Positions 2,006 to 64,000 of a stretch of 64,000 nt of DNA are shown here, one piece after another. A program made the position numbers and the translations under genes. Below the pieces are notes generated by a model. It was given only the letters and a program-made list of their open reading frames with translations. It searched no databases and was not told the DNA's origin. The stretch is from a virus (Duplodnaviria > Caudoviricetes). Location: IMG/VR virus record IMGVR_UViG_3300029286_001711, one strand, 5' to 3'. How positions within the stretch are numbered: position 1 is the first letter of the stretch; the number at the start of each line of letters is the position of its first letter.

Positions 2006-2824
2006 TTATCTTAAAAAATTATTTAATCCTTGTAATAATTTTTGATTTTTCGTGTTGGTAATATCAGTGAAGGGGATTGTTGTTGGCTTATATTCTTCTA
2101 CTAAGCTCCATTGACAAGTGTATCCATTACAACCCATTTTATTTTCTACCGATTCAGTATATGTTTTTAAATCTGAAGAATCTGAAGATATCCACGAACC
2201 TGGGGTTGATGGTGAAGTTACAATATCCCAACAAATTAATTCGAAGTCGTCTTGAACAACATTCTTACCACCTTCTTGTTTAAGGGATCCAACACCACGA
2301 GATGAAATACCAACTGTCCAACCTTTTCTAATCATGTTGACAACCTTGTCACCGACAGAACTAATAACACCTAATTTATGATAACCTGGGGTAGTATCTA
2401 GTTCTAATTTACCCATTAAGGTTTTACCTTCCCACCAAGTTTCTGTGATTCTATGCGAAACTCTATCAGCATCAATGATTGATGATTCTGGGTGGTTTAA
2501 TTCACCAAGTGAGGTTCCCATTTTAATATATTCTTGATATCTATCATTTTCTCTTTCAAGAATCTCTTTAGGATATATCCTTCCGTTTTTATTTTCAATA
2601 CCCCATTTTTGAAGTACGGCATAAACAATAACCACATCAGGCAAACTACCGTCTTTACCGATATTTGTACCTGATTTAAATTCATTTAATGTTAATAAAT
2701 GTTCTTTAATTAAATCGGAATTCTTTCTACCTTTGTATGTTAAATCAGGGGAAATGTATCCAGAGTCGTATTCAACTAAAATACCTTTACCTGTATCACC
2801 TGGTCTTAAAATTTTCATATGCAA
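2006..2824 (-). CDS. Prohead protease (T4 gp21-like)
   Basis: N(K)NGRIYP, GELNHP, VSH, GISSRGVGS, WDIVTSPSTPG motifs; head gene context. Confidence 0.92.
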   Translation of the reverse strand: MHMKILRPGDTGKGILVEYDSGYISPDLTYKGRKNSDLIKEHLLTLNEFKSGTNIGKDGSLPDVVIVYAVLQKWGIENKNGRIYPKEILERENDRYQEYIKMGTSLGELNHPESSIIDADRVSHRITETWWEGKTLMGKLELDTTPGYHKLGVISSVGDKVVNMIRKGWTVGISSRGVGSLKQEGGKNVVQDDFELICWDIVTSPSTPGSWISSDSSDLKTYTESVENKMGCNGYTCQWSLVEEYKPTTIPFTDITNTKNQKLLQGLNNFLR

Positions 2825-12408: not shown

Positions 12409-12467
12409 AAAAATGGTGTTCCTTTATTATATAAATATTAAGAAACATCATTTAATTCTATCAGCAA

Positions 12468-25830: not shown

Positions 25831-25897
25831 AATTAATTTGTATAATTAAAACTATTGTTATATCTTTGTAATTGTAAACAAAAACCTAATAAACTGT

Positions 25898-48603: not shown

Positions 48604-48947
48604 GATATAAAGAAGGGGAGGAAGTTTCATTTAAAGTTTTATCACCAATTGATGAATCCGTCAATGGGAAAGTGGTGGTAGCAATTCCAGATGGAATACT
48701 TAAATGGGAAGAATATGGTGAACCGTATTATTTAGTTGAATACCGTGAAGGTTGGGATTACCATTTAATGGTAATGGATGAATTAATAGGTTTAATAGGG
48801 GAAGATAATATATCTAAACTAGAAGATGAAAAAAAATATTGGTTTGTTCGTGAAAAAAACATTGTTGGTAAGTGGGATGGAAAACGGACAATACCAGAGT
48901 TAATGAATTTTAGGTTATTAAAATATAACTTTAAGAAAAATTCTTAA
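48600..48947 (+). CDS. Hypothetical protein (SH3/KOW-like)
   Basis: MRYKEGEEVSFK...GKVV; basic C-terminal tail. Confidence 0.55.
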   Translation: MRYKEGEEVSFKVLSPIDESVNGKVVVAIPDGILKWEEYGEPYYLVEYREGWDYHLMVMDELIGLIGEDNISKLEDEKKYWFVREKNIVGKWDGKRTIPELMNFRLLKYNFKKNS

Positions 48948-49894
48948 TCGTCTAACTTGTTCCAAACATCACCAGTATAGAGTTTCCAGACACCCCTTTC
49001 TAGGTGATTTAATACTGATTGTAAATTGTAAGTGGTACTTTGGTTTTTACCGTTATGAATCCACGATACACCAATAATCGGTCTTCCTTTAAAATCTTCT
49101 TTTATTGAATCTATTGTGTAAACAATAAAACTACCCACAGAATCTTCATCAGCAAGTGTAAATTCTAGTCCTAATAAACTTTTTGGATCTTCCATTTTAT
49201 TTTCATTAATATTTTTTCGGCCTATAAAATCTGACCATATAATATGTATTGGTTTACCTAGCTTATTACTTACTGATACACCTAAAGAATCATGATAAGG
49301 CCAACTAGCTGAACGTGTTAGTGTTTGATCTTCAATATTTTCAGGCCAGATAGATTGTATAGACCTTATCCCTTTAGTTTTTTCAATCTTCGTACCTTGT
49401 TCACCCCATCTAAATCCTTGTTTGAATAACCATTTTTGTATTTCAATGAAGTCTTCATCGGTATCAAAATCAATATGCCAAGGCTTACCTTTTAAACCGT
49501 CATACCCATTAATAACATCTTTTGCCCATTCAAAATCATCTTCAGATTCGTATAGTTTATCAAAAGCTTGATTAACATCTGGGATGACACTATAACCATC
49601 AAGCATTCTATATCCGTTACCTTCAAACCATTCAAGCCTATCATTTAAGTTATCATTATCTGTACCCTCACGATAATCGTATAGTGTGAACTGGGTTATA
49701 TAGTTATCGTATATTCTAATATATCCAATACTATCTTCAGTATTAACCATGATGTCTCTTATGTAATCATAACTTTTATAGTTTTTACGTTCATTACTAT
49801 CAAACAATAAATCAATAATTTTAATACCCTCATTACCAGATAGTGGTGGGTTGAAAGTTAATATTGTATCTCTATCGAAAAAGGCAGATATCAT
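48944..49894 (-). CDS. Three-module polyprotein-like protein
   Basis: Linkers FDKLYESEDDFEWAK and NINEN; start reassigned to 49894 after ATATTTAT 49900-49907. Confidence 0.7.
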   Translation of the reverse strand: MISAFFDRDTILTFNPPLSGNEGIKIIDLLFDSNERKNYKSYDYIRDIMVNTEDSIGYIRIYDNYITQFTLYDYREGTDNDNLNDRLEWFEGNGYRMLDGYSVIPDVNQAFDKLYESEDDFEWAKDVINGYDGLKGKPWHIDFDTDEDFIEIQKWLFKQGFRWGEQGTKIEKTKGIRSIQSIWPENIEDQTLTRSASWPYHDSLGVSVSNKLGKPIHIIWSDFIGRKNINENKMEDPKSLLGLEFTLADEDSVGSFIVYTIDSIKEDFKGRPIIGVSWIHNGKNQSTTYNLQSVLNHLERGVWKLYTGDVWNKLDD

Positions 49895-49928
49895 TAACAA
49901 TAAATATTCAGGAAAACGGAAAGGGGTG

Positions 49929-50189
49929 TTAGGTCATTTGAAACCTTTTGGAAAAAGAACATCTAGGTTCGATTTGGGGTTTACTAGATATTACGTAGAA
50001 AGAACCACATTCAATATGGTTATAATTTAGATTGATACTATGTAATGATGAACCGTCAGAAGTTTGTGGTGGTGTAATCATATTAACTTTATTATACGTA
50101 AGGTTACCTTCACCTTCAACATAAGATTCATCAGTGATTTCATAGGTACCACCAGACCAAAATATTATATCGCCAACACGTAATCTCAT
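49929..50189 (-). CDS. Small hypothetical protein (SH3/KOW-like, basic C-tag)
   Basis: MRLRVGDIIF...IEPRCSFSKRFQMT. Confidence 0.55.
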   Translation of the reverse strand: MRLRVGDIIFWSGGTYEITDESYVEGEGNLTYNKVNMITPPQTSDGSSLHSINLNYNHIECGSFYVISSKPQIEPRCSFSKRFQMT

Positions 50190-50191
50190 AA

Positions 50192-50437
50192 CTATACAAA
50201 TTTGAATTTTAAAATATTACCAGCCCATTTAGTAGGGCTAACAGCACCGATGACATAGTCGTTCCACCTCTCAACTCTAAAACATTTTTGAGGAACCATT
50301 GGGTTTTCAGGAAATGTAAACCAAACACGGTTACCAACACCTCTTTCTTCTATTCTAGTTACTAAAATTGTATTACCGTGAAATCTAGATGAAATAGATC
50401 CGTGATCATTTAAACGATATGTTTTACCTATCTCCAT
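50192..50437 (-). CDS. Small hypothetical protein (SH3/KOW-like, basic C-tag)
   Basis: MEIGKTYRL...SPTKWAGNILKFKFV. Confidence 0.6.
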   Translation of the reverse strand: MEIGKTYRLNDHGSISSRFHGNTILVTRIEERGVGNRVWFTFPENPMVPQKCFRVERWNDYVIGAVSPTKWAGNILKFKFV

Positions 50438-50798
50438 TATTTTATATTGAGAATATGTTTAATTAAATCAACATCAATTTCTTCGGGTCTGTGTTTAACC
50501 AACTCAACACGTTTAATTCCGACACCTAATAAATCGTCAAAACGTCCAATAGACCAACGACCATTAACTAAGAAAGCATATAAATCATCAATCTCACCTT
50601 GTTCATTAACAATAACATAAGGTTCAACTGGTATCCACTCAAAACCCATTTTAGGATATATTTGAAATCTTGTTCGGTAACCAAACGATATTCATTAAGG
50701 CGAATGCCATTTCTAACCTTCTGTAAAAACCCACCCAAAGTTAACCCCTTGGTTAATAAATGTTTGGGTATGGGCACCATAATCAATTCATCATTCAT
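50437..50798 (-). CDS. Two overlapping ORFs (50568-50798 and 50437-50649), possibly one frameshifted gene
   Basis: TATCTTTG at 50804-50811; a -1 shift at CTAAAATG fuses them to about 120 aa. Confidence 0.4.
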
Positions 50799-50848
50799 AT
50801 ATACAAAGATAAACAAATTAGAAGAAATAGATAAATAAAAATTAGGAA

Positions 50849-52723
50849 TTACTTGATAGGTTTAACACCTTGATTTGTCATAACAAAATGACCACCGTCT
50901 TTAACACGAATCATATGGTGAACAGGTAAACTATCGGCGAAGTAGATATCTTCTGTCCATAACTTAGTATCATGATAACATTCATCACCATCATCTGGGA
51001 TAACTAATATACCCTTTTTATATAGTTCATCAATACATTTTCGATCACCTTGGGGTTCTCCACTACGATCTTGACCAATTATACATTCCCTAACCCCAGG
51101 GATATTGAAATAATCCCATAACGTGATGTTTTCTGGATAGTAATGTCCTCTTCTTAATACAACCCATAAATTTTGATCTACGTTAGATGGTGGGGTAATG
51201 TCTCTAGCCCATTCAAACTCGTCTTCTTCAGATTCTTTAAGATTTTCTTGGGGTGGGGTTATATATTTAACTCTTAATATACCATCAGTTCCAATTGTAG
51301 AGGAACTTACTTCGAAATAATTACCAGTTGATGCGGTTCTCCAATTATTAGGTCTATCTGATAATGAAGCTAACCATTCTAATATTATATTGTCAATCTC
51401 ACCCGTACCATTCCCACTATAGACATCTCTTTTATAGGTAACTCGGTCAACTTTAAATTCCTCACCAGTTAAATTAAACAATAATTTTTTACTATCCCTA
51501 ACTTCACCGTATAAGGCAATCTCATCACCTTTTACTAATGCATCTTTTTCCCATAAATAACCTAAAGTGATTGGTGTGTTAATCAATTGTTTAGCCCATT
51601 CAAAATCTTCTTCAGATTCATATAGTTTACTAAAGGCATCATCCGAACTCATCTTAGAAAACTCAAATTGACCTCTACTTAAATAAACCCACCTACCAGT
51701 TTCATTTAATCTAATATGAAATACTACACCAAAGGTACATTCACCAGGTTTTATTTCGGTAATCTTTTTATATATACCACTTCTACCACTAATATCTAAA
51801 ATTGTTCCAATTTGTTCCCATGATGGGACATAAACATTGTCACCAACATGAATTGTTCTTACACCTTCAGATTCAAATAATCTATTAAAATTATCAATAG
51901 TTGTTTTAATATTATCATCTTTAATAAAATAAAATCCCCTATTTAAATCACCAATGAAATCATCCCATTCTAAAGAACCCTTAGCACCCTCCCATTTAAT
52001 CTTAAGTTCTTCACCGTCATCATCAACTATAGTATAAAAAATTCCAGTCTCCTCATATTCTGTAGGGTGATAAAACTGTAACCCAAGAATATCTTGAGTT
52101 CTTAAGAAACTGTAATCATTTTCAGATTCATATAATTGTTTATACAGGGTATCAAAAATTTCAGAAGTGGTTGTACCGTTAACATAATCCCAACCATCAT
52201 AAAGTTCCCAATAATTTGGTGTGTCTTTCATTTCATGTTCAGCATCATTACCAGTACCCCAAGTTACACTTTTCCTAGAATCAATAAAAATAGTATTTAA
52301 TTTAATAGAGGAATAACTTCTACTGTTGAGTTTATTACCACTACTCCATTTAATACCAGGAAACATTTCTGTCAACCTATCGTAAATCATTTCTTCCTGT
52401 TCAGAAGTGGGACGGGGATCGAATTTTAAAATTATACCCCTTTCTTTTACTGCGTCATTAGATTCATTAATTGTTTCTTTTATAACGGAAGAAATATCAA
52501 CAGTAGGCAAATCAGTTATAATCCAAGTATCATTTATATAATTAAGAAAAGTTTCCACATCATAGTCAGCCATATCTTCACCTTTATAACGATGTGGCCA
52601 GTCAATAAAGACATGACCATCATAATATGAGTGAATAAGATAATCCCATTTACGTTCACCATCTCTCTTAAGACGAAAGTGTAAACCGATCAAATAGGGG
52701 ATATCATCAATGGTGTATTTCAT
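50849..52723 (-). CDS. Six-module polyprotein-like protein
   Basis: Linkers INES, LYES, LFES, LYESEEDFEWAK, LKESEEDEFEWAR; start reassigned to 52723 after ATATTTAT 52729-52736. Confidence 0.75.
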   Translation of the reverse strand: MKYTIDDIPYLIGLHFRLKRDGERKWDYLIHSYYDGHVFIDWPHRYKGEDMADYDVETFLNYINDTWIITDLPTVDISSVIKETINESNDAVKERGIILKFDPRPTSEQEEMIYDRLTEMFPGIKWSSGNKLNSRSYSSIKLNTIFIDSRKSVTWGTGNDAEHEMKDTPNYWELYDGWDYVNGTTTSEIFDTLYKQLYESENDYSFLRTQDILGLQFYHPTEYEETGIFYTIVDDDGEELKIKWEGAKGSLEWDDFIGDLNRGFYFIKDDNIKTTIDNFNRLFESEGVRTIHVGDNVYVPSWEQIGTILDISGRSGIYKKITEIKPGECTFGVVFHIRLNETGRWVYLSRGQFEFSKMSSDDAFSKLYESEEDFEWAKQLINTPITLGYLWEKDALVKGDEIALYGEVRDSKKLLFNLTGEEFKVDRVTYKRDVYSGNGTGEIDNIILEWLASLSDRPNNWRTASTGNYFEVSSSTIGTDGILRVKYITPPQENLKESEEDEFEWARDITPPSNVDQNLWVVLRRGHYYPENITLWDYFNIPGVRECIIGQDRSGEPQGDRKCIDELYKKGILVIPDDGDECYHDTKLWTEDIYFADSLPVHHMIRVKDGGHFVMTNQGVKPIK

Positions 52724-52750
52724 TAACAATAAATATCAGAAATTCAGGAA

Positions 52751-52783
52751 AAAGGGGGTCGGGGGAAAACGGTACGGGATCCG
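52751..52783. repeat. GC-rich element, left arm of an imperfect inverted repeat
   Basis: AAAGGGGGTCGGGGGAAAACGGTACGGGATCCG versus reverse complement of 57730-57759. Confidence 0.7.
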
Positions 52784-52832
52784 GCTATGCGAAAATCAAT
52801 CCACATCATTGTATTCGTAGTGAACACACTAA

Positions 52833-53090
52833 TTAGGATAAGGAAAATTTCTTTAGATGTGTAATAGGTTCAATACCAACATAAGAGAAATCAATATGTT
52901 TAAGCACAGAACGACCATTATGATACATAAAGAAAGGTTGTCCATCACCATTAAGGACGAGAGAACCATCCTGATTATAAACTTCCATCGTACTTCTTGT
53001 AAGGATTTTAAAAATCTTTCCCTTTAATTCTTCCTTCAAAGATGAAGGCCCACTTTTAAATCGATATGTCTTACCAATAAGAATATTCAT
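52833..53090 (-). CDS. Small hypothetical protein (basic C-tag)
   Basis: LIGKTYRFK...IEPITHLKKFSLS. Confidence 0.6.
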   Translation of the reverse strand: MNILIGKTYRFKSGPSSLKEELKGKIFKILTRSTMEVYNQDGSLVLNGDGQPFFMYHNGRSVLKHIDFSYVGIEPITHLKKFSLS

Positions 53091-53378
53091 TTATTGTTTT
53101 TTTAAAAAGTTAAATATTTTAAATCGATAATTAGGGATTTTAGTCATAGCAATCCATTTACCTATTACACTTCCACATATATAAACAATAATAACAGTAT
53201 AGTTACCATTTAAGAGACCCTCTATAGAAAAATAGGTTGTGGATATACTAACCAAATTAATAAAAACTGTATTTAAAAGTAATGGGATAATTTTATTCTC
53301 GTAAGTATATTTAATCTCATAAGTTTTAAAAATATTAAATAAGACCTGTGAGATGAATATGAAAATATAGGTTAACAT
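53091..53378 (-). CDS. Small multi-TM membrane protein
   Basis: Three hydrophobic segments, GSVIG motif. Confidence 0.6.
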   Translation of the reverse strand: MLTYIFIFISQVLFNIFKTYEIKYTYENKIIPLLLNTVFINLVSISTTYFSIEGLLNGNYTVIIVYICGSVIGKWIAMTKIPNYRFKIFNFLKKQ

Positions 53379-53384
53379 AATGAA

Positions 53385-53699
53385 TTAATGTCTAGGTACA
53401 ACAATCTCAACCTTCTGCTTGGGATGAATGGTATGAACATACTTAATAAGATTATCCGTTTGAACCTCAAAACTAAGTTGGGTAATCGATAACTCTTGAA
53501 TGGGTTTGGCATGTTTACCATGAGAAGGATTTAACTCAAACTCGGAGTGGTCATAGACAGCAACAGATTTATTACTATAGTAAATGGTGTCGTTCTTGGT
53601 AGACCATTTATGGTATTCTTCACAAGTTAATTTTCCCTTGTATACTGAACAAGAGACGATGGACATAATAAGTCCAATTGATATTACTATTTTTTTCAT
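53385..53699 (-). CDS. Putative lipoprotein
   Basis: Start reassigned to MKKIVISIGLIMSIVSC (lipobox-like). Confidence 0.55.
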   Translation of the reverse strand: MKKIVISIGLIMSIVSCSVYKGKLTCEEYHKWSTKNDTIYYSNKSVAVYDHSEFELNPSHGKHAKPIQELSITQLSFEVQTDNLIKYVHTIHPKQKVEIVVPRH

Positions 53700-53700
53700 A

Positions 53701-53940
53701 TTATATAAATTTAAAAACCAATTTGGAATCACCCTGAATAATATCAGGTGCTTCACCTTGAACATAGATATCCCAAAACCCCTTGGGTAGGGTACGAATA
53801 CGTGAAGTACCTATAACTTGATAATGTACATTGATACGACCAATACCCGTAAGGTAAAATTCCTTATTGGCAAGAAGACCTATCTTATGGTTAGGGTTTT
53901 CCACCCTCTCCCTGAACTTATATCGTTTACCTATCTCCAT
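53701..53940 (-). CDS. Small hypothetical protein (SH3-like, basic C-tag)
   Basis: MEIGKRYKFR...KLVFKFI. Confidence 0.6.
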   Translation of the reverse strand: MEIGKRYKFRERVENPNHKIGLLANKEFYLTGIGRINVHYQVIGTSRIRTLPKGFWDIYVQGEAPDIIQGDSKLVFKFI

Positions 53941-53943
53941 ATC

Positions 53944-54156
53944 TTAATGTGTACCGTTAGTTAATGAAACCCCATGACGAAATCCCATAATGAAATCCCT
54001 AATTTCTTCCTCATTCATTTTGGGGAGTATGGAACCTAAAATAAATCCGACCTCATTACCGACATCCGATAAATCACCATTCTGATAGGGAACCTTGGTT
54101 AACCCAGCACCTAACTTATTTAAGACCTCTTGAAACTCTATCTCACGTTCTTGCAT
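53944..54156 (-). CDS. Hypothetical protein
   Basis: 70 aa; TATCTTTG at 54256-54263. Confidence 0.55.
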   Translation of the reverse strand: MQEREIEFQEVLNKLGAGLTKVPYQNGDLSDVGNEVGFILGSILPKMNEEEIRDFIMGFRHGVSLTNGTH

Positions 54157-54410
54157 ATAGAAAAGACTATACTTAGTTTTAAATTCCTTATAGGTGGAAT
54201 TGGATAACTCGAATGTTTTTTAGTCCCTTACATTCTGAACCATAAACCTTATATACAAAGATACGAAAATTATTTTATTGAGACCACTTTTTTGGGAAAA
54301 ATTTTCCCGAAATTTTTTTTGGGTTTTTGACCCTATATAGAGTAGAACGCTATTTTCAGAAATTTTTACCCCAAAATTTTTTTACACTTTTGATCTGAAA
54401 ACGTATCCGA

Positions 54411-54492
54411 ACCCCCCTATTGGGGGCTCCCCACGTCCCGGCCAGGGGGAGGGGGGATATGCGCAGGGGGGAGGGGGCCATGGTATGGGGAC
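54411..54492. other. Non-coding G-tract island (G-quadruplex potential)
   Basis: G5, G6, G6, G5, G4 runs at 54445, 54451, 54466, 54473, 54487 in an AT-rich genome. Confidence 0.75.
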
Positions 54493-54524
54493 CCTGCCAG
54501 CCTGACATCTTGTCTGTATATTTC

Positions 54525-54716
54525 TTACGTTCGCCTCAATAGTCTACTATTAATTGGTTTGGCCGATGTCCCAGTGAACTTCGGCTTATTGTACTGCTTC
54601 ATCCTCTCCATAAACTCTTTCCTCTTCCTCTCTCTGTTGTCCATCACCTTCACGATGACAGCTGATACGATTAGGATTGTACCTACTGAGATTCCTACTA
54701 TAACATTCGCTTCCAT
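54525..54716 (-). CDS. Small single-TM protein
   Basis: VIVGISVGTILIVSAVIV then basic tail; promoter TTTG-N20-TATCTTTG at 54733-54764. Confidence 0.55.
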   Translation of the reverse strand: MEANVIVGISVGTILIVSAVIVKVMDNRERKRKEFMERMKQYNKPKFTGTSAKPINSRLLRRT

Positions 54717-54805
54717 ATTATTATCTTTAATACAAAGATAAACAATTCATTTGATATAGACAAATCTATTTGCTATGTTGTTATGTCTATCTTAGTCGTT
54801 GGAGA

Positions 54806-55075
54806 TTACATAGTCGTTGAGAATGTTAATGGTCTTAAGTGTTTGATTGGTTCTATACTTTCTTCCCGTATAGATAGTACACCTCTCTCTAGCCAACCCT
54901 CTATGTCATCATCATAAACCCAGATGGTCTTACCTGATGTCTTACCCTTAAGGAAGTACTTGTGTCTAATGAATGGTACATCACCTAGTCTATAGACTCT
55001 ATCAGCCACTTTGTCTATGACGGTCATGTAGCTATCATGTCTCATGTTATTAAACCTATCTCCTATTTGATACAT
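54806..55075 (-). CDS. Small hypothetical protein (basic C-tag)
   Basis: MYQIGDRF...IEPIKHLRPLTF. Confidence 0.6.
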   Translation of the reverse strand: MYQIGDRFNNMRHDSYMTVIDKVADRVYRLGDVPFIRHKYFLKGKTSGKTIWVYDDDIEGWLERGVLSIREESIEPIKHLRPLTFSTTM

Positions 55076-55448
55076 TCTTCTTCCTGCTCTTCTTAATCTC
55101 GTTAACTAGTATGGTGATTGATGTGACAGCCAATCCTATACCAAAACAAAACCCCATAACATCTTTTATAATCATACGATAAAGATAACCATTTTATTTG
55201 GTAGTGTCAAAAGTATTATGTACATTTGTATTGTTGATGGCCATCAGCGTGAGAGTACCAGAGTCGATTGGAGACAGCGCCAAGTGTGCCTTATATTTTC
55301 CTATTGCGGAAAATATTATTTGTTTTTTAATTATATTATCCGTATCTTTGTATTATATGGGAATGACATTTAGAGTCGATGATAAACAATCGTTTTAATG
55401 TTTTTTACACTTTGTTATACACAGTATTAATTTATAAAATATAAACAA

Positions 55449-55616
55449 ATGGAATCAGTAAAAGAATTTATCACAGAAACAAAAACAGAAATAAAAAACG
55501 GTGTTAAATACACCACACATTTTGTTAATAGACCTATTAGACAAGGCGACACACAAGGTGGTTCTGTTGGTACGTGTATTAACGGAATAAACAAAACAAC
55601 GGAAATCATAAATTAA
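55449..55616 (+). CDS. Small hypothetical protein (55 aa, below the ORF-track cut-off)
   Basis: Manual translation MESVKEFITETKTEIKNG...; preferred over the antisense ORF 55427-55609. Confidence 0.45.
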   Translation: MESVKEFITETKTEIKNGVKYTTHFVNRPIRQGDTQGGSVGTCINGINKTTEIIN

Positions 55617-55856
55617 TATTGTGTATAACTACTAGATTAACGCAATAGACATAACAAATAAAAAAAATAACAAGGTGTATCAATGCCTACATATAAAAAA
55701 GTGAAGAAGAAGTATGTCAGCGTATTTAGGTGTTGTAGTTTCATTGACTTGGCTGGTTTTAATACTTTCCTACCAACTAGAAAACGTACACTTGTTATAA
55801 AAAATTAACCCATAAAAATAGTTGATAGTATAAAATAAAATTCTTATATTTGTAGT

Positions 55857-55955
55857 ATGGAAATATTAAGTTTAGAAACAGGAGTATTAGTAATGGTGGG
55901 CGTTTGTATCACCCTATTAGTATGGCTATTACGCAGAGTCGCTAAGATGAGTTAA
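55857..55955 (+). CDS. 32-aa hydrophobic peptide
   Basis: MEILSLETGVLVMVGVCITLLVWLLRRVAKMS; TATATTTG at 55845-55852. Confidence 0.5.
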   Translation: MEILSLETGVLVMVGVCITLLVWLLRRVAKMS

Positions 55956-56253
55956 ACATGGGTTACGGTACACCCTATTTTCCCACTCTCTGTCCCTTCT
56001 CTCCAGGGAATTCCCCATTCGCTGCCGTAAAATTTGAGTCATAACTCGCAAGAGGGTCAGTTCCCTTTACGGTTTCCTTACATAATCAACCATTTCCTAT
56101 TGTCTTTTCTATACGTGGCAATCTCTTCATATACACAATCCACCACTTTTCCCCATTATTTACCACCGAGTATTCCAAGATCGAGAAATTTATACTAATT
56201 GGCAGCGGGCGTTGCCTATTGTATGGATCTACATCTTCCACACATTTACTGAA

Positions 56254-56475
56254 TTAAGATCGTAATAGAGTAGGGTTTATGGTACGTAGTAATGTCGGTT
56301 CAAAACATTCTTCCATATTTTCCTTCCATATCCAGAGTATTCTGTTCCCCCTTTCCAATATATCAACACACTCTCGTTCCCAGGCAATATATCTATATAC
56401 CTCATAGACTTTTCCTATACGGAAATTCTTTGTATAATCAATCTTAGGAATCTTCTTACAAATTACTCTTTCCAT
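56254..56475 (-). CDS. Small hypothetical protein
   Basis: IGKVYEV segment, SH3-like. Confidence 0.55.
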   Translation of the reverse strand: MERVICKKIPKIDYTKNFRIGKVYEVYRYIAWERECVDILERGNRILWIWKENMEECFEPTLLRTINPTLLRS

Positions 56476-56849
56476 TACTTCATGTTCTTTGTTACCATCT
56501 CCAATGTATATAAGTTCTCATTGTCCTTTTTGGTTCTGTTCTTTTTATTCTTAAGTAATTCAATCTCTTTCATTAATTCCAACTTTTGATTACTTACCTT
56601 TACTTCAGGTTTCTCAATGAATGAATGTTCTATTGTCTTTACTGGTCTGTCTACATAGACTATCTTTTCCTTATAGACAATTTTCTCTACAGGGATTTCC
56701 TTATTTACTATCTTATCTTTGTAGACAATTTTATCCTTATAGATAATCTTATTCTTACCGATTGGTTTACTCTCTGCTGATAGAGATTTCATTACTAAGA
56801 ATTGTATTACGTTGAGAACTATTGAACCTATTATTATCATTTCTATCAT
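56475..56849 (-). CDS. Membrane-anchored protein with (K/E)IVY(K/V)D repeats
   Basis: N-terminal TM; KIIYKDKIVYKDKIVNKE..EKIVYKEKIVYVD; TATCTTTG at 56854-56861. Confidence 0.6.
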   Translation of the reverse strand: MIEMIIIGSIVLNVIQFLVMKSLSAESKPIGKNKIIYKDKIVYKDKIVNKEIPVEKIVYKEKIVYVDRPVKTIEHSFIEKPEVKVSNQKLELMKEIELLKNKKNRTKKDNENLYTLEMVTKNMK

Positions 56850-56867
56850 AATACAAAGATAGGGAAT

Positions 56868-57092
56868 TTATTCCTCATTTCCTATTCTATAATCTATTCT
56901 ACACCAGTAGTATTTCTCCAATGTACTAACATTAAATCCCCTTTCCAATATCATCTTACCAACCAGACTCCATCCTTGTTCTCTCTCTATATAATTTAGT
57001 ATTGTATTTATAAACTCCATAGTTACATGTTCATATATTTTAGACCTTTGTTCTTTCTTACTAAAACTATGTCTCTTTAATTTGAATTCCAT
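56868..57092 (-). CDS. Small hypothetical protein (MEFKLKRH start)
   Basis: Start reassigned to ATG 57092. Confidence 0.55.
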   Translation of the reverse strand: MEFKLKRHSFSKKEQRSKIYEHVTMEFINTILNYIEREQGWSLVGKMILERGFNVSTLEKYYWCRIDYRIGNEE

Positions 57093-57094
57093 TT

Positions 57095-57301
57095 CTAATT
57101 GTATTCTACTACACATCTTACTTTCTCATTATAGAGTGCTGGACATTCTCCTGTATAAGTTTCTATTCTAAAATCTATTACATTATATCCTCTTACTATC
57201 ATGGTCTTAATCCAATCCAAAGATTCTCTATGTGTTATATCTTCACATGTAACAGAATAAATTTTTCTTATACTATGTTTCTTCAGATTCTTTTTAATCA
57301 T
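57095..57301 (-). CDS. Hypothetical protein
   Basis: 68 aa coupled ORF. Confidence 0.5.
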   Translation of the reverse strand: MIKKNLKKHSIRKIYSVTCEDITHRESLDWIKTMIVRGYNVIDFRIETYTGECPALYNEKVRCVVEYN

Positions 57302-57585
57302 TTCCTATTGTAATTTTCTAAAAACTTATTTGATGTCATATCTACGTATTCTTCCACTGTCATGAATTTGATATCTTTTATCTCTTCATTTTGTATTACC
57401 CTTTCTACTGGTTGACAACACTCATAACAGTCTGTCTTTATTGAATAATCTACTACTGCATCATATCCACAATGATGTCCTATATCAGTTAGGAAATCTT
57501 TCTTACAGTGTGGACATTCTGTTTGTACACAAATTAATACAATACCTTTACCACGTTTTAGTGCCTCTTGTAAATTATCTTCCAT
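57298..57585 (-). CDS. Zinc-ribbon protein
   Basis: CPHC...CGY...CYECC. Confidence 0.6.
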   Translation of the reverse strand: MEDNLQEALKRGKGIVLICVQTECPHCKKDFLTDIGHHCGYDAVVDYSIKTDCYECCQPVERVIQNEEIKDIKFMTVEEYVDMTSNKFLENYNRK

Positions 57586-57729
57586 TTCTTATCTTATTCT
57601 TAATCTCTTTATGTATGGTAATGGTTCCATAACTTCTTTAACCCATTTCTTATAGAAACTTCCTTTGGTTCTACAAATATAATGAATTTATCTCTTATTA
57701 TCCATTATGTGGATAATATTTCCGATCAA

Positions 57730-57759
57730 CGGATCCCGTCCACAATCCCCGACCCCTTT
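57730..57759. repeat. GC-rich element, right arm of an imperfect inverted repeat
   Basis: CGGATCCCGTCCACAATCCCCGACCCCTTT. Confidence 0.7.
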
Positions 57760-57854
57760 CTTTCCGACCGTTCCTATTGTAATTCTAATGGATTAATACT
57801 TAGTAGTAAGTCCATCATTTCTTCCTGTGTTAATAATATTGCTGTTCCCATTTC

Positions 57855-58139
57855 TTATTCATAATGATAGTTCTTTCTTTGTGTTGTAATCAAATATTTG
57901 TCCAGGAATATTTGTTCTATTTCAGGTATTGGGTTATTATCACCTAAGAACCCATCTTTACCCCATTGTCCATTTGAGTAATAAGCCACGAGTTCTTCTT
58001 CTTCATCACCTAATAGGTACCATTTGATTATATGGAAATCTTTATTCATTATACACTCATCTCTCACATATTCTACCCCATCATATTCCACTACATGTGT
58101 GAAATCTTCTCTATATCTTGGTTCTCTTATTATCTTCAT
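57855..58139 (-). CDS. Hypothetical protein
   Basis: 94 aa in small-gene array. Confidence 0.55.
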   Translation of the reverse strand: MKIIREPRYREDFTHVVEYDGVEYVRDECIMNKDFHIIKWYLLGDEEEELVAYYSNGQWGKDGFLGDNNPIPEIEQIFLDKYLITTQRKNYHYE

Positions 58140-58142
58140 TTC

Positions 58143-58340
58143 TTATTGTAATTTAAATTTTTCTATATATTGTATTGGTTTAATATCTTCCTTAATCCAT
58201 CTGTCATAAAAACGGCCATCCATTTCACAGTAATAAACAAATGTTTCCCATCCATAACCACAAAAGACCGTTTCCCATCCGTTCATACTTTCTACCCATT
58301 GTCTATATTTACGAAACCCCTCTCTATATCTTCCTTCCAT
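58143..58340 (-). CDS. Small hypothetical protein (basic C-tag)
   Basis: Ends IKPIQYIEKFKLQ. Confidence 0.55.
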   Translation of the reverse strand: MEGRYREGFRKYRQWVESMNGWETVFCGYGWETFVYYCEMDGRFYDRWIKEDIKPIQYIEKFKLQ

Positions 58341-58343
58341 TTC

Positions 58344-58580
58344 TTATTGTAGTTTTACTTTTCTTAACATTCTTGGTATACAGCAGATTTCCCATTCTAT
58401 AAATTCCTGATATGTTATTGGCCATATATGTTCATATTTCACATCACCTATTTCAAAATATCTTAGATAGTCTCTGAGTGAGATTAGTGTCTCTAATTGA
58501 TTTATTCCCATGAACTTTGATTCCAATGTTATATCGTATTTATTTAGTAAGAATTTCCTGTATTCCTTCTCCTTATCCAT
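58344..58580 (-). CDS. Small hypothetical protein (basic C-tag)
   Basis: Ends IPRMLRKVKLQ. Confidence 0.55.
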   Translation of the reverse strand: MDKEKEYRKFLLNKYDITLESKFMGINQLETLISLRDYLRYFEIGDVKYEHIWPITYQEFIEWEICCIPRMLRKVKLQ

Positions 58581-58749
58581 TTCCTTCTGATAATGTTCTT
58601 ATTCTAAACAATGGTCTTGGAGTTCCATGTTGTAATCTTCTTAATCTTTTTCTTTCTTGTTGTCGCATTACCTTTTCTAACCATTCTTCCTCTTCTCTGG
58701 TTTTCTTTCTTCTGGGAATAAAGTTATGTCTCTTTAATTTGAATTCCAT
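58573..58749 (-). CDS. 58-aa basic protein (MEFKLKRH start)
   Basis: Manual translation MEFKLKRHNFIPRRKKTREEEEW...; not in the ORF track. Confidence 0.5.
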   Translation of the reverse strand: MEFKLKRHNFIPRRKKTREEEEWLEKVMRQQERKRLRRLQHGTPRPLFRIRTLSEGNG

Positions 58750-58752
58750 TTC

Positions 58753-59127
58753 TTATTGTAAGTTGTTTTTGTAAATGTAATCATATCTTACCATCAAACC
58801 AACTTCACCTGTTGGTTTCATATCTTTCCCTACGATACCACCGATCGGTGTTACATCATATAGATAAATCCCTTCTACACCTTTTTCCTTGTAGGTTCCT
58901 GTGCTAATCTTTTCCTTTGTTCTTACTAACCATTGATGATAGGTTTCATTTGGTTTTATCATTTCTGACCTAACACACCAGTAAGGAACTTTCTTATGTA
59001 CTGCAGTTACTATTTTACCTGGGTTTTTAAAATCATCTTCAGTCTTTGTTTCAAAACTTACTAACTCCTGGTCTTCAATCTTAGTATTACTATCTTGTAG
59101 TGGTTTCCATATTTGTATTACTTTCAT
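58753..59127 (-). CDS. Hypothetical protein
   Basis: 124 aa in array. Confidence 0.55.
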   Translation of the reverse strand: MKVIQIWKPLQDSNTKIEDQELVSFETKTEDDFKNPGKIVTAVHKKVPYWCVRSEMIKPNETYHQWLVRTKEKISTGTYKEKGVEGIYLYDVTPIGGIVGKDMKPTGEVGLMVRYDYIYKNNLQ

Positions 59128-59130
59128 ATC

Positions 59131-59439
59131 TTATTGTATATTTAAATTATCTTTTGTATCACCATTGAGTATTGGTATGAGTTCGTCTGGTACATAGTAG
59201 GTGTTTCCGTATTTATCCATCTTTATTGCCTTTGTTAAGAAAGGTTCTGATGTATATCTAACAACAGGGTCTTGAGTATAATAACAGAACCTATGAATCT
59301 TTTCATTATCACCGTGTTGAGCTGTGACTGTATAGTCACCATCATCCCATAAGTTTATTATAATAGTATGATGGCAGTTTGGAAACATCTCGAACATTGT
59401 TTTTCTTACGACTTCTATTTTATCTGAAAAATTATTCAT
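59131..59439 (-). CDS. Hypothetical protein
   Basis: 102 aa in array. Confidence 0.55.
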   Translation of the reverse strand: MNNFSDKIEVVRKTMFEMFPNCHHTIIINLWDDGDYTVTAQHGDNEKIHRFCYYTQDPVVRYTSEPFLTKAIKMDKYGNTYYVPDELIPILNGDTKDNLNIQ

Positions 59440-59442
59440 TTC

Positions 59443-59739
59443 TTATCTTATTTCTAATTTCTTAATTTTCTTAATTGGTATTATATCACCCACTAGTCTT
59501 AAATGATGTGTATCTATAATTTCACTTATTGACCCTTCACTAATACCACAATATCTTTTTCTAGTATTTTCAGGTGTATGATAAACTTCTACGTCGTATC
59601 TTATATCATCATAGTGATAACCAGCACTAATTATTATATTGGTAATTGTTATGCCGTAACCATCACGTCTATAGACCTCACCTATATTCATTAGAATTAA
59701 AATTGGAAATTGGGGTTTGATTTTTATAGAATTCTTCAA
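59443..59739 (-). CDS. Small hypothetical protein (basic C-tag)
   Basis: MNIGEVYRR...IIPIKKIKKLEIR; true start probably the internal Met. Confidence 0.55.
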   Translation of the reverse strand: MKNSIKIKPQFPILILMNIGEVYRRDGYGITITNIIISAGYHYDDIRYDVEVYHTPENTRKRYCGISEGSISEIIDTHHLRLVGDIIPIKKIKKLEIR

Positions 59740-60022
59740 ACATACTTTCTATATCAAAACTATATAAAGGATTTTTTGTGTCTATCTTTTTAAGGTATTC
59801 TCCAGCACACTTATTTACATTGTGATAAACTATTCCATCCTCTTCTAGTTCATGGTCAAAACTATAAACCTCAGGTTCCATCGATTGTATTATATACCTT
59901 TCTCTATATCCAAGATTATACACATCTCTACCATAATGATATGCTTCCAAGACCACACAAACAATCTCTATCGAATCACTATTATATTTAACAACTTCTC
60001 CCTTATAGAACAATGGTGTCAT
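59678..60022 (-). CDS. Hypothetical protein (SH3-like)
   Basis: YKGEVVKY; promoter TTTG-N20-TATATTTG at 60027-60058. Confidence 0.55.
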   Translation of the reverse strand: MTPLFYKGEVVKYNSDSIEIVCVVLEAYHYGRDVYNLGYRERYIIQSMEPEVYSFDHELEEDGIVYHNVNKCAGEYLKKIDTKNPLYSFDIESMFEEFYKNQTPISNFNSNEYR

Positions 60023-60081
60023 ATCACAAATATAATCATTTCTGTGGAATTAGACAAATATATATCTGGACCGTCTTGCAT

Positions 60082-60110
60082 AAAAAACCCCCATATTTCT
60101 ATGAGGGTTT
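60082..60110 (-). terminator. Intrinsic terminator
   Basis: AAACCC.CAT/ATG.GGGTTT stem with U-tract. Confidence 0.65.
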
Positions 60111-60114
60111 ATTT

Positions 60115-60618
60115 TTATCGACCTAAAATCTTGGTGATTTGTTTGGCCTTGTTGATGTCATCTATTCCCATTACTTTGAGAACTTGATATGCTTTGAAAT
60201 CTTCATCGGAGAATTCTTCGATTTTTTGTGTGATTAGAAATTGTTTCTTTTCTTCAAGGTCTTTAATCTCTGTCTCTAATTCCACCATTTTATCTTTCGC
60301 TCCCTTTATGTCCTCTTCGATTGTTTCGAGGTTGATTACGTTTGGTTTCAATTCATATTCGTAGTAATTATATTGGGCCTGATATGACTGTCCATTGTAT
60401 GTTATTACTGAACAAGTGTATTGTGTCTGACCTCCACCACAACCTTTATGTTCTTTTGTAACTTTTACCACAACATCTAAACACTGACCTTGTGATACTC
60501 CAAGACCACCTGATGATTGTTTACCATTTGGTGTTGTTACTACTTTGTATGTTTTTCCTACTTCAATTTTCATTTTTTTTCTTTTAAGTTTGTTTTTAAT
60601 ATATTGGATTAAATTCAT
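60115..60618 (-). CDS. Hypothetical protein (SH3-like + coiled coil)
   Basis: IEVGKTYKV; C-terminal heptads. Confidence 0.6.
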   Translation of the reverse strand: MNLIQYIKNKLKRKKMKIEVGKTYKVVTTPNGKQSSGGLGVSQGQCLDVVVKVTKEHKGCGGGQTQYTCSVITYNGQSYQAQYNYYEYELKPNVINLETIEEDIKGAKDKMVELETEIKDLEEKKQFLITQKIEEFSDEDFKAYQVLKVMGIDDINKAKQITKILGR

Positions 60619-60668
60619 ATTTAATTTTACTTAAAATTTTTGATACTGTCAAACAAAAAACCCTGATG

Positions 60669-61400
60669 TTATTCAGGGTTCATTAAATTAATTATTTGCC
60701 ATTTGCCGTCATAATCTTCGACCAAACAGGTGCTATTCTCACAAAAGTCTCCTGAATTCATATAATCTTGTTCTAATTTTGGATAATGTATGTGACCACA
60801 AACAGCAACATCATAACCTTTTTGTTTGGTTAAATTCTTAGCATTATCTTCAAAATCTGATACAAAGTTAATTACTCCTTTGACAGATTGTTTAATTGTG
60901 TTAGCTAACGAATGATAAGGTAAATTAAATTTATTTCTTATATAGTTGTATACTGTGTTTAGTTTAATAATAAAATCATATGACCAACCGCCAAGAACTG
61001 CTAACCATCTCATTTTCATAATTACAAAATCTAAAACATCTCCATGAAAACAATAGTAAGTTCTACCATCTACTCCTGTGTGTACATACTTTCTAACAAT
61101 TTGAATATTGTTCATAGTAAATGGAATAAATGGTTTTAAAAAATCATCGTGATTTCCCCTAATGTATATTACTTTTGTTCCTTTCTCACTTCTCTTCATA
61201 AACTTTCTAAATATTTTGGAGCAATCGTTGTTCCACCTTCCTTTTGATTTTAATGCCCAACCATCAATGATATCGCCATTTAAAATTAATATTTCGGATT
61301 TGTTTTCTTTTAAAAACTGTAATATCTTTTCTGTTTGTGATTGTCTTGCACCAAGATGTAAATCACTCATTATAATGGTTCGCCATTTTTTCATTGCCAA
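60669..61400 (-). CDS. UDP-2,3-diacylglucosamine diphosphatase-like metallophosphoesterase
   Basis: SDLHLG, NGDIID, RGNHD, HGD, GHIH, NSGD. Confidence 0.85.
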   Translation of the reverse strand: MAMKKWRTIIMSDLHLGARQSQTEKILQFLKENKSEILILNGDIIDGWALKSKGRWNNDCSKIFRKFMKRSEKGTKVIYIRGNHDDFLKPFIPFTMNNIQIVRKYVHTGVDGRTYYCFHGDVLDFVIMKMRWLAVLGGWSYDFIIKLNTVYNYIRNKFNLPYHSLANTIKQSVKGVINFVSDFEDNAKNLTKQKGYDVAVCGHIHYPKLEQDYMNSGDFCENSTCLVEDYDGKWQIINLMNPE

Positions 61401-62095
61401 TATGAATTATGTTTTTGAAAAAAGTTCTTATTATTTCTGTTAATAAATGATTGAAACATTAATTTTATCATATACACTACACCCTTGTTTTTAAACCTTC
61501 TTGGGCTTGTGAATATGTGTTTGTCGATAATTTTAAATTTATTGGGTTTTACTTTTTTGGATAATAAATAATCTTCTGCGACTTTTATACTTTCATCAAA
61601 ACCACCAAGTTTTTTAAATATCTTTGTTTTAAATAACATAAAACCACCAAGACAAAATGGGGTTATTGGTTTAATTATTTTTTGTATAACATCGAATGAT
61701 TTATATGTGTAATTATATTCACCTGTTGTTGTTCTAACTTTTGTGGTTAATAAATGAAGTTTTTCTTTTTTCATTATATTAATTGTTTCTGTTAGTAAAT
61801 TAAAATCTAAAATAAACATGTCTGCATCCAAAAATAAAACATAAGGAGTTGTTACATATTTAATACCATTATTTCTTGCAACTGAAGGTAGGCCACCTTG
61901 AATAATTTGTAAAATAAATTTATCTTTTTCTCTTAATTCAAGTTCAACGGTTGTGTTATCCGTTGAAGAATCTGATACAATAACATTAACCCCCTCTATG
62001 TTATTTTGTTGGTTTAATAAAGATAATGTTGTGTCTATTATCTTAGATTCATTTTTACAAGGTATAACGATTGTTAGTAATTTTGAAAGTTCCAT
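61391..62095 (-). CDS. Glycosyltransferase family 2
   Basis: IVIPCKNE, VSDSSTD, ARNNG, LFLDAD, GGFDE, AEDY; ATATTTAT at 62100-62107. Confidence 0.9.
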   Translation of the reverse strand: MELSKLLTIVIPCKNESKIIDTTLSLLNQQNNIEGVNVIVSDSSTDNTTVELELREKDKFILQIIQGGLPSVARNNGIKYVTTPYVLFLDADMFILDFNLLTETINIMKKEKLHLLTTKVRTTTGEYNYTYKSFDVIQKIIKPITPFCLGGFMLFKTKIFKKLGGFDESIKVAEDYLLSKKVKPNKFKIIDKHIFTSPRRFKNKGVVYMIKLMFQSFINRNNKNFFQKHNSYWQ

Positions 62096-62134
62096 AATGA
62101 TAAATATCTTTTAATATTTTCCTAATCAAATCTC

Positions 62135-62545
62135 TCATTTCATTTTACACCAATACTTACTTGGGATTAACTCTTCCGTAAACCATTTGAAGGAAACATC
62201 TTCGTAACCATTCTTATCAGCATCTTCACTTTCAGGGTCTTCATAATCATAACACCTTGAGGATTCTATTGAATAGTCTTTAGCGTTGTAGGTTGTATTT
62301 TCAGGATCACAAGGTTTATACTTAATAATAAGCCCACCTTTTTCATCGGGGATAATATCAGCAATTGTCAGAACGTATCTAGCATCTGTTGGTTGATAAT
62401 CATCAGGAGATGGGTTGGTTTTCTGGGGATTATTATTATCAACAACATAGAAAACATCACCAATGTTAATGTTTAAACCTGATACTGCCTCTCTAGCCCA
62501 TTCCAGGTCGTCGATTTCTTCTTTTATGATTTTTCTAATATCCAT
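62135..62545 (-). CDS. Single-module member of the EDDxEWA family
   Basis: MDIRKIIKEEIDDLEWARE + NIGDVFYV. Confidence 0.7.
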   Translation of the reverse strand: MDIRKIIKEEIDDLEWAREAVSGLNINIGDVFYVVDNNNPQKTNPSPDDYQPTDARYVLTIADIIPDEKGGLIIKYKPCDPENTTYNAKDYSIESSRCYDYEDPESEDADKNGYEDVSFKWFTEELIPSKYWCKMK

Positions 62546-62546
62546 T

Positions 62547-63932
62547 TTATTCTATAACAATAATATCTACCATATCTTCATTAATCCAATAAGGTAGGTC
62601 TAAAACATTATCAGTTAAACACTCAACAAGTTGAGCACTCAGAACATCCTCATCGATATCCATACCAAAATTAAAACCAGCTTCACAATCAGAACCACTT
62701 CTCACCATCTGTTTAATTTTACCTATTCTAAATACTTGTTTAAACCACCATTCAACATTACCATTAAATGAACACAAATCTAAGGATTCTTTAAAATAAT
62801 CACTACCATTTGATTTTGGGATAAGTTTAAATTTTAGTTTATCAAGATTTTTAGGGTTACTTTGTTTAAAGACATCCCAATAGTTTTCAACCCCAGAAAC
62901 CAAATCTCTGGCCCATTCCAATTCATCTTCTTGTTCTCTAATTTTACTAACTCTCTTCCTAGCTGGTCTATACCCGTCAGCATTAATTATAAAATGTTTA
63001 CCATCTGATTTTCTCACCAGATGTGAAATTCTTTCATCGTATTCATTAGTCTCCGTGTTATTGATTAGGTAACAAATATCACCGTTTTCTGGTGTCCCTA
63101 ATGATGGTACTTGTTGATGTAAAAATAATGTCCCAACATCACCTTTAATGCCCTCACCCATTTCATATCTACGTGATAAATTATGATAATCTTCACTATC
63201 CCACCAATGTTTTCCATATTTCTGATTAAACTCTTCCATACCTGGAATTTTTACATTTAACATAAATTCTGTATAGGTCGGATAATAAGCCGCACTTCTG
63301 GTAACCACAACTTCTGGAAATTTAGTTAGTTCCTTAGCCCATTCAAAATCATCTTCAGATTCATTTAGATTACTCTCCACAACTTTCCAAGCACCACTAT
63401 TCAAAATCTTTAAAAGTTTGCCTATATCAAAAGGTGTACCTTTTGATGGGTATGAAGCCGGTAAGTTTGCTGGTAAAATATATACAACCCTATCTGTAAC
63501 TTTTGTTATAACAGCTAATATTGGTGAACCACCTGGTATTTTTGATGGTATTGAAAATTTCTGACCAACTTTAAGAAGATTGGTACTATCTAAGTCTTTA
63601 ACCCAAGATAAATCATCTTCAGATTCATATAACTGGCCAAAGAAATCGGTATTTTGAATATCAGGTGGAATTAGAGTGAACCAATCTTCATAGTTTCGAC
63701 CAACCACATCTTTTTGTACAGTAAATCTAGCAGTATGTTGACCACGATTTCTAACCCCTCCAATACTAATGATATCTTCTCCACGATTACCACCCCTAGA
63801 TTCAAAGTTGGTAACTTCAACATAATCACCCACCTTTGGCCCAACACCTTCCGTATGGCAATACAAAAAATCTCCGACCTTGGGTACCGGCTTTAATGAT
63901 TCTTTAATTATTTTACGGATAGAGTTTCTCAC
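62547..63932 (-). CDS. Four-module polyprotein-like protein
   Basis: Start reassigned to GTG 63932 after ATATTTAT 63937-63944; IIKES leader; linkers LYESEDDLSWVK, LNESEDDFEWAK, IREQEDELEWAR. Confidence 0.75.
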   Translation of the reverse strand: MRNSIRKIIKESLKPVPKVGDFLYCHTEGVGPKVGDYVEVTNFESRGGNRGEDIISIGGVRNRGQHTARFTVQKDVVGRNYEDWFTLIPPDIQNTDFFGQLYESEDDLSWVKDLDSTNLLKVGQKFSIPSKIPGGSPILAVITKVTDRVVYILPANLPASYPSKGTPFDIGKLLKILNSGAWKVVESNLNESEDDFEWAKELTKFPEVVVTRSAAYYPTYTEFMLNVKIPGMEEFNQKYGKHWWDSEDYHNLSRRYEMGEGIKGDVGTLFLHQQVPSLGTPENGDICYLINNTETNEYDERISHLVRKSDGKHFIINADGYRPARKRVSKIREQEDELEWARDLVSGVENYWDVFKQSNPKNLDKLKFKLIPKSNGSDYFKESLDLCSFNGNVEWWFKQVFRIGKIKQMVRSGSDCEAGFNFGMDIDEDVLSAQLVECLTDNVLDLPYWINEDMVDIIVIE

Positions 63933-64000
63933 GTTAATAAATATCCACATAAAAAAAGAAGAACACATCTCCTTTATTTTTTCATCCCTAAATATTCTTT

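Follow-up and report, generated by a model that had tools for sequence, protein, structure and literature searches.

Candidate head-cargo polyproteins with a repeated protease-site-like linker in an uncultured lake-water jumbo phage

Introduction

Three open reading frames (ORFs A, B and C) of a 64,000-nucleotide stretch of phage DNA (IMG/VR record IMGVR_UViG_3300029286_001711, hereafter the window) code for strings of small modules joined by one type of linker, in which a site resembling that of the T4-type head protease precedes an acidic-aromatic stub. The source phage is an uncultured lake-water jumbo phage. The locus raises the question of whether these long proteins stay whole or are precursors whose modules are set free, and by which enzyme. 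The answer that we hold to be somewhat probable is that ORFs A–C are capsid-loaded precursor polyproteins processed by the prohead protease of family S77, an extension to polyproteins of the targeting and processing known from T4. It draws on the logic of the sequences, the signals of co-regulation and the gene neighbourhood. ORFs A–C would be transcribed together with the head genes and their precursor proteins would enter the prohead. There the S77 protease would cut after each Glu, yielding domains of ~85–140 aa that each start with S-E-D-D-F-E-W, and the released domains would later be ejected along with the DNA.

Modules and Linkers

ORFs A, B and C are built of three, six and four modules, respectively, in agreement with an earlier note on this DNA (coordinates in Table 1; the GTG start of ORF C is the one chosen in that note, while ORFs A and B start with ATG). 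The strings TINES, RLFESE and QLYESEND, listed there among the separators, are by homology genuine module boundaries. The modules had also been described as mutually dissimilar. B6 and C3, however, are paralogues, so that this is not true of all modules; the cassette picture nonetheless stands. No Pfam or PHROG family was found above threshold in ORFs A–C, and none of the three has a peptidase module.

A six-frame scan of the window found the acidic-aromatic motif of the linker only in real ORFs, with six internal copies and N-terminal copies in the genes at 62135-62545 and 2869-4809. Linkers of the window were then pooled with those of three related contigs and of 40 database homologues, using the acidic-aromatic-x-W half alone as anchor. 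The tripeptide [L/I]-x-E ends 0–2 residues upstream of this half in 72 of 89 instances (81%; 4% by chance), and L or I occupies position P3 in 60 of the 89. The linker consensus is (F/I)-x-x-[L/I]-x-E↓S/Q-E-D-D-F-E-W-A-K/R-D, in which the arrow marks the proposed cut. [L/I]-x-E is present on all 11 module boundaries and in four leaders (see below). The degenerate boundaries (INE↓SND, LFE↓SE, LYE↓SENDYSFL and INE↓NK) have lost the aromatic part and kept [L/I]-x-E, the next residue being S or N.

No other 15-residue window of the ORF A orthologues is as conserved as the linker (identity 0.95 versus 0.70 overall); in the most distant orthologue its identity is 0.87 versus 0.43 overall. The conservation at DNA level that had been claimed is borne out by the 26-nt string, which occurs three times, where it had been reported, and not once in 100 shuffles. 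The Ser after Glu is coded by TCN in 19 of 19 cases and never by AGY, which fits common descent of the linkers over convergence. A scan of IMG/VR for exact EDDFEW[AV] gave matches that are mostly unrelated glycosyltransferases, and no published description of the linker or leader motif was found in the searchable literature.

Leader Peptide and Tagged Proteins

Four proteins of the window (ORF C, the stand-alone protein coded at 62135, a CCA-adding enzyme and a SprT-like metallopeptidase) open with a leader, an 11-residue basic amphipathic peptide (M-K-x-L-I-K/R-K-I-L-K-E) that ends in a linker-type site. All four have in this way a ~10-aa N-terminal propeptide ending in [L/I]-x-Glu. ORFs A and B have such sites internally only, their own N-termini being devoid of leader and tag. 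The earlier observation that the tag opens stand-alone proteins is confirmed for the products of 62135-62545 and 2869-4809, where it stands behind the basic leader. The leader was found in more than 120 IMG/VR stretches, on at least 126 different proteins. In the complete 380-kb genome G015, tagged genes number at least 33, among them those of a 1254-aa polyprotein with at least six linkers and of a 1577-aa one with at least eight.

Two other polyproteins were seen outside the window. The related contig L001 (IMG/VR 3300036770_006325) codes for an 1154-aa polyprotein that has approximately nine linkers and ends in an HExxH module; it also has several leader-tagged genes, GIY-YIG endonuclease genes and a product that, judged by eye, resembles bacterial-type IF3. 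Just past the window end, upstream of ORF C, a fourth polyprotein (L056:2-643) has a KLYESEDELDWAK linker and a B5-like module. Glycosyltransferase-like and other genes lie between its gene and ORF C.

The leader-tagged CCA-adding enzyme has two H-x-T motifs in its carboxyl-terminal part, which shows a weak match to the phosphodiesterase (2H) domain of tRNA ligase, and [L/I]-x-E sites (KLKE, LITE) are found near both of its junctions. The gene is missing from the equivalent place in G003, a related 226-kb contig. This CCA-adding/2H protein may be a packaged tRNA-repair fusion.

Upstream Motifs

The motif ATATTTAT has 31 copies in the window, 25 of which lie at most 60 nt upstream of genes and in sense orientation (1.4 expected); the same upstream position is occupied by 52 of the 99 copies in G003. 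It precedes the portal, large terminase (TerL), protease and scaffold genes, many large unannotated genes, and ORFs A, B and C. The gap between ATATTTAT[AT] (examples at 52728-52736 and 2835-2842, both minus strand) and the gene is 13–58 nt for head and other large genes versus ~4–5 nt for tagged genes; in the CCA and SprT-like genes the motif is placed 5 nt ahead of the ATG. The short gaps of the tagged genes suggest near-leaderless mRNAs. No unusual RNA structure was found ahead of ORFs A and B.

A different box, TAnnTTTG, and not ATATTTAT, is found ahead of the DNA ligase, endonuclease and RecA-like genes and of the small-gene clusters around the polyprotein genes (example at 12425-12440). 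This box resembles the −7 element of Bacteroidota promoters and points to a Bacteroidota host. With ATATTTAT on the polyprotein genes versus TAnnTTTG on their neighbours, the former look like islands of the structural regulon.

Leader genes have further features at the level of nucleotides. Codons 7–9 of the leader are near-fixed as AAA ATA TTA (loci L057–L176) and codons 4–6 vary freely; the ATA usage is 90% versus 37% in the remainder of the same genes, which looks like a nucleotide-level constraint. The ATATTTAT box is found 1–9 nt upstream of the start codon in 39% of 123 leader genes (~2% expected). Together with the TCT codon used for the P1′ Ser in 8 of 8 boundaries of the window, these features would suit linkers that are relics of fused small genes, each once equipped with a mobile promoter-plus-leader cassette, and that act mainly as DNA or RNA, in recombination or in translating near-leaderless mRNAs, with no role in the protein. 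We consider such an origin very improbable as an explanation of the linkers. Their internal copies are devoid of the N-terminal half of the leader and cannot serve translation initiation, [L/I]-x-E and the stub are under the strongest purifying selection of the protein, and the synonymous codons of the linker vary in other genomes.

Shuffling of Modules

An exhaustive profile-free search with ORF B returned 40 proteins. Among these homologues the modules recur singly as untagged small proteins, as leader-tagged small proteins that align residue for residue with the internal linker, and inside polyproteins of different length and order. An A1-like module replaces B3–B4 in one protein (P0002). 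In two relatives of ORF A (84% and 44% identical) an extra ~90-aa module has been inserted precisely behind the linker. The closer relative (P0049) has a second linker copy after this module; in the other (P0052) that copy is degenerate. Comparison among relatives, as called for by the earlier note, shows module shuffling at linkers in their protein sequences: the number of modules varies and their order is not invariant.

As all cassettes end in the same linker, domains are gained, lost and re-ordered at linkers, which the comparison shows; the mechanism of this exchange is our inference. The proposal that linker DNA may be a recombination hotspot fits the insertion and deletion of cassettes as well as lake metagenome contigs that match the linker DNA only (49517/49524-49549) and diverge at both flanks. 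Note that much deeper lake contigs match positions 51381-51500, inside B5, and the pyrimidine-rich CCCC-TTT-CCTGAAT at 52724-52757 and 49894-49916. They diverge on both sides of these matches; some abundant other genome has the same short pieces.

Predicted Structures

Module B5 was folded with both flanking linkers by AlphaFold2 (11 sequences). Its core (residues 32–145) gave a confident, beta-rich model (pLDDT above 90); both linkers had a pLDDT below 50 and no secondary structure. The linker is predicted to be disordered and to lie outside the B5 module fold. That the linker is an integral part of one repeated fold is ruled out for B5 by this model. Foldseek found no match of B5 in the PDB at E ≤ 0.001, and VIA-align detected a weak likeness (Z 5–6) to the SH3, Tudor, KOW and FeoA barrels, which are common small barrels. 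The notion of SH3/KOW-like modules is retained for this one module at that level of likeness, nothing stronger having been found. AlphaFold2 modelling of the whole ORF A (seven sequences) had a mean pLDDT of 50.6, with A2 alone moderately confident, and is uninformative on linkers. A MAFFT alignment of the full ORF B with 47 domain fragments was left unused for folding because the fragments were scattered.

Predicted disorder is also a property of binding motifs. The proteins could then stay intact as beads on a string, with linker and tag acting as a short linear motif for a common partner (a chaperone such as the ClpB homologue of the phage, an assembly factor or a host protein), whether in the virion or not. 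The acidic-aromatic stub is more conserved than [L/I]-x-E, leaderless stand-alone homologues retain a DFxW-like start, and a ClpB-like gene is encoded, all of which this explanation would account for. We nevertheless rate it as unlikely because the degenerate boundaries drop DFEW yet always retain [L/I]-x-E-S and the leader has the length and pattern of the peptide that serves T4 for targeting and cleavage. Moreover, the occurrence of the same modules as separate small proteins implies that single-domain products are functional.

Head Protease and Proposed Processing

Processing of ORFs A–C by an S77 protease supposes that the phage codes for one. The earlier note had placed a gp21-like protease at 2006-2824; its assignment to family S77 is upheld by PF03420 and phrog_207, with the correction that the gene is on the minus strand. 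The protein of the gene that directly follows has its leader internal, behind an extra N-terminal piece (Table 1); in the orthologues of G003 and G015 the leader is N-terminal (MNIRKIIKE↓E). In G003, tagged genes come after the major capsid gene, and its capsid protein has LINE↓TDTSGG near the place homologous to the T4 site. An S77 protease is found in 11 of 18 long leader-bearing contigs, among them the two with a completeness of 98% or more; the leader-bearing relatives of 295 and 380 kb both encode it. Complex prediction with protease residues 30–240 and a 41-residue linker peptide gave 0.00, which the tool reports as "no answer" and which speaks neither for nor against binding.

The linkers could instead be cut by another enzyme, namely the leader-tagged SprT-like metallopeptidase or a host protease, before or after delivery. 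The leader-bearing SprT-like gene is kept in the head module of three phages: that of the window, G003 (25877-26305, minus strand) and G015 (153796-154200, minus strand). Its product might itself be packaged as cargo or take part in processing as a second enzyme. However, the invariant Glu with L/I two residues earlier is the known S77 rule, and we know of no such sequence rule for SprT-type enzymes. That ORFs A–C have no peptidase module also makes cutting by another enzyme improbable in our view, even if the 1154-aa polyprotein of L001 ends with an HExxH module and metallopeptidase processing has been proposed for phage-delivered multidomain proteins (PMC5512222).

Several observations weigh against the reading of ORFs A–C as head cargo cut by the S77 protease. 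ORFs A and B have no N-terminal leader, so their targeting would rest on the internal linkers. [L/I]-x-E occurs within modules at about the chance rate, and accessibility or extra determinants would thus be required for cutting at the linkers. The strongest conservation falls after the proposed cut, in EDDFEW, which is without counterpart in T4, and untagged stand-alone homologues retain a DF/YxW/F-like start; this piece may therefore serve the mature domain otherwise. The late timing of ATATTTAT genes is deduced from the set of genes that bear the motif, and an untagged glycosyltransferase gene also has it, so ATATTTAT is not exclusive to cargo and head genes. The acidic-aromatic stub may extend the site that the protease recognises, or may be a handle for retention or ejection; the earlier note had seen in EDDFEW a possible scaffold-docking signal.

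Source Phage and Neighbouring Genes

The T4-type head genes present in the window are those of a large phage: a portal (PF07230), a large terminase, the S77 prohead protease and an acidic scaffold-like protein. The GC content is ~32%. The region was recovered from lake-water metagenomes of many studies, none of the runs being an RNA run. The nearest phage records have a portal identity of only ~40%. The tag was not found in the nearest portal relatives, which are the cultured Microcystis phage Mel-JY01, Flavobacterium phage immuto and an uncultured 484-kb phage genome, and a cultured-phage search of 50,697 phage records gave no DNA or protein match to the polyproteins. No tRNAs or Rfam families were found in the window. 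Other genes of the window code for a full-length ClpB-like disaggregase (20673-23198, plus strand) and, within the head gene block, for a glutamine-synthetase-like protein (5279-6433, minus strand).

Table 1. Positions of the polyprotein genes, their module boundaries, the tagged and head-module genes and the promoter-like motifs (arrow, proposed cut).
Feature	Coordinates	Strand	Description
SprT-like metallopeptidase	651..1124	+	leader MKRNIKNILRE; in head module
Head-module protein directly after protease gene	1457..1924	-	leader NNIIKE↓S internal, behind extra N-terminal piece
Prohead protease, family S77 (T4 gp21 type)	2006..2818/2824	-	PF03420 E 6e-29; phrog_207 E 7e-42
CCA-adding enzyme	2869..4809	+	646 aa; leader and tag MKNVVRKILKE↓NDFDWV on extra ~150-aa N-terminal module
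ORF A	48944..49894	-	316 aa, three modules; boundaries LYE↓SEDDFEWAK (residues 114-125) and INE↓NK (229-233)
A1/A2 linker	49520..49555	-	26-nt conserved string inside, 49524-49549
ATATTTATT promoter-like motif	49899..49907	-	5 nt before ORF A start codon
ORF B	50849..52723	-	624 aa, six modules
ORF B modules			residues: B1 1-~92, B2 ~95-198, B3 ~199-283, B4 ~284-365, B5 366-495, B6 496-624
B5/B6 linker	51200..51241	-	LKE↓SEEDEFEWAR
B4/B5 linker	51587..51625	-	LYE↓SEEDFEWAK; 26-nt string at 51594-51619
B3/B4 boundary	51866..51880	-	LFE↓SE
B2/B3 boundary	52103..52135	-	degenerate linker LYE↓SENDYSFL
B1/B2 boundary	52454..52471	-	degenerate linker INE↓SND
ATATTTATT motif	52728..52736	-	5 nt before ORF B start codon
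Stand-alone protein	62135..62545	-	136 aa; leader and tag MDIRKIIKE↓EIDDLEWAR
ORF C	62547..63932	-	461 aa; leader MRNSIRKIIKE↓S and four modules
C3/C4 linker	62904..62942	-	IRE↓QEDELEWAR
C2/C3 linker	63330..63368	-	LNE↓SEDDFEWAK; 26-nt string at 63337-63362
C1/C2 linker	63594..63632	-	LYE↓SEDDLSWVK
ATATTTATT motif	63936..63944	-	3-4 nt before ORF C GTG

Implications

If ORFs A–C are processed head cargo, tailed phages would use the logic of viral polyproteins to bring numerous small effectors into the head with few genes; no description of such loading in tailed phages was found in the searchable literature. The leader, [L/I]-x-E and EDDFEW would then provide a sequence rule to pick injected proteins in uncultured jumbo phages, and these proteins are the likeliest anti-defence factors of the first minute of infection. 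Pre-packaged tRNA repair is a possibility raised by the tagged CCA-adding/2H-phosphoesterase fusion. As tools, the short leader and linker could bring foreign proteins into capsids, as the T4 targeting sequence already does. A broader and more doubtful idea, which we put forward tentatively, is that of a freshwater jumbo-phage clade with a portable packaging grammar, composed of the promoter box immediately ahead of the start codon, the leader for loading into the prohead and a repeated head-protease-cut linker that leaves the S-E-D-D-F-E-W handle on all released domains as a second signal, for capsid retention or for ejection. Dozens of interchangeable anti-host domains, swapped at linkers, would in that case be loadable from few precursor genes.

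Comparison with Known Systems

The T4 capsid-targeting sequence consists of the first 10 residues of internal proteins; targeting depends on residues 4 and 7 and processing on residues 8 and 10 (PMC9026906). Counted from the cut, these are hydrophobic P7, P4 and P3 and Glu at P1, and the leader found here has the same pattern. The T4 record has LTE followed by AEIGG in gp23, and the N-terminus MAKINELLRE followed by S in gp24, positions that we take to be T4 cleavage sites. The features shared with the T4 system (IPI/IPII/IPIII, Alt and gp24) are the S77 prohead protease, the N-terminal peptide of 10–11 aa with hydrophobic P7/P4/P3 and Glu at P1, the unrelated bodies of the cargo proteins and the location of their genes in variable regions. 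Ser follows the cut site in T4 gp24, likewise here. Unlike in T4, the site is repeated within long ORFs, with three to six proposed products per precursor here and at least eight in relatives. Further differences are the conserved acidic-aromatic stub behind the cut site and the absence of an N-terminal leader from some precursors. Also unlike the T4 system, the one described here is known from sequence alone.

Cleavage of the phiKZ type occurs at a small residue-x-Glu motif (S/A/G-x-E). The proteins described here do not fit this type, with L or I at P3 in 60 of the 89 pooled instances and head genes of T4 type. The phiKZ-like phages (201phi2-1, phiKZ and SPN3US) are also jumbo phages with many head proteins, which are cut extensively after Glu, often at more than one site of a propeptide, and they eject a mass of protein (PMC9026906). 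Their gp175/gp245-type proteases remove a propeptide from one mature protein, whereas many unrelated domains would be released here. They belong to a different lineage and are not reported to have a common tag behind the cut.

The nearest published concept is that of polyvalent proteins (Iyer, Burroughs, Anand, de Souza, Aravind 2017, PMC5512222), which have 2–15 domains in shuffled architectures. Packaging and delivery together with the DNA have been predicted for them, perhaps with domains first set free by proteolysis. The word "linker" appears nowhere in the text of that paper. The presence of several unrelated domains per polypeptide, with variable architecture, is a feature common to polyvalent proteins and ORFs A–C. 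Polyvalent proteins have recognisable enzymatic or DNA-binding domains, often with links to MuF, portal or metallopeptidase domains, none of which is found in ORFs A–C at the Pfam and PHROG thresholds. These are composed, unlike polyvalent proteins, of small unannotated domains around one conserved cleavage-like tag.

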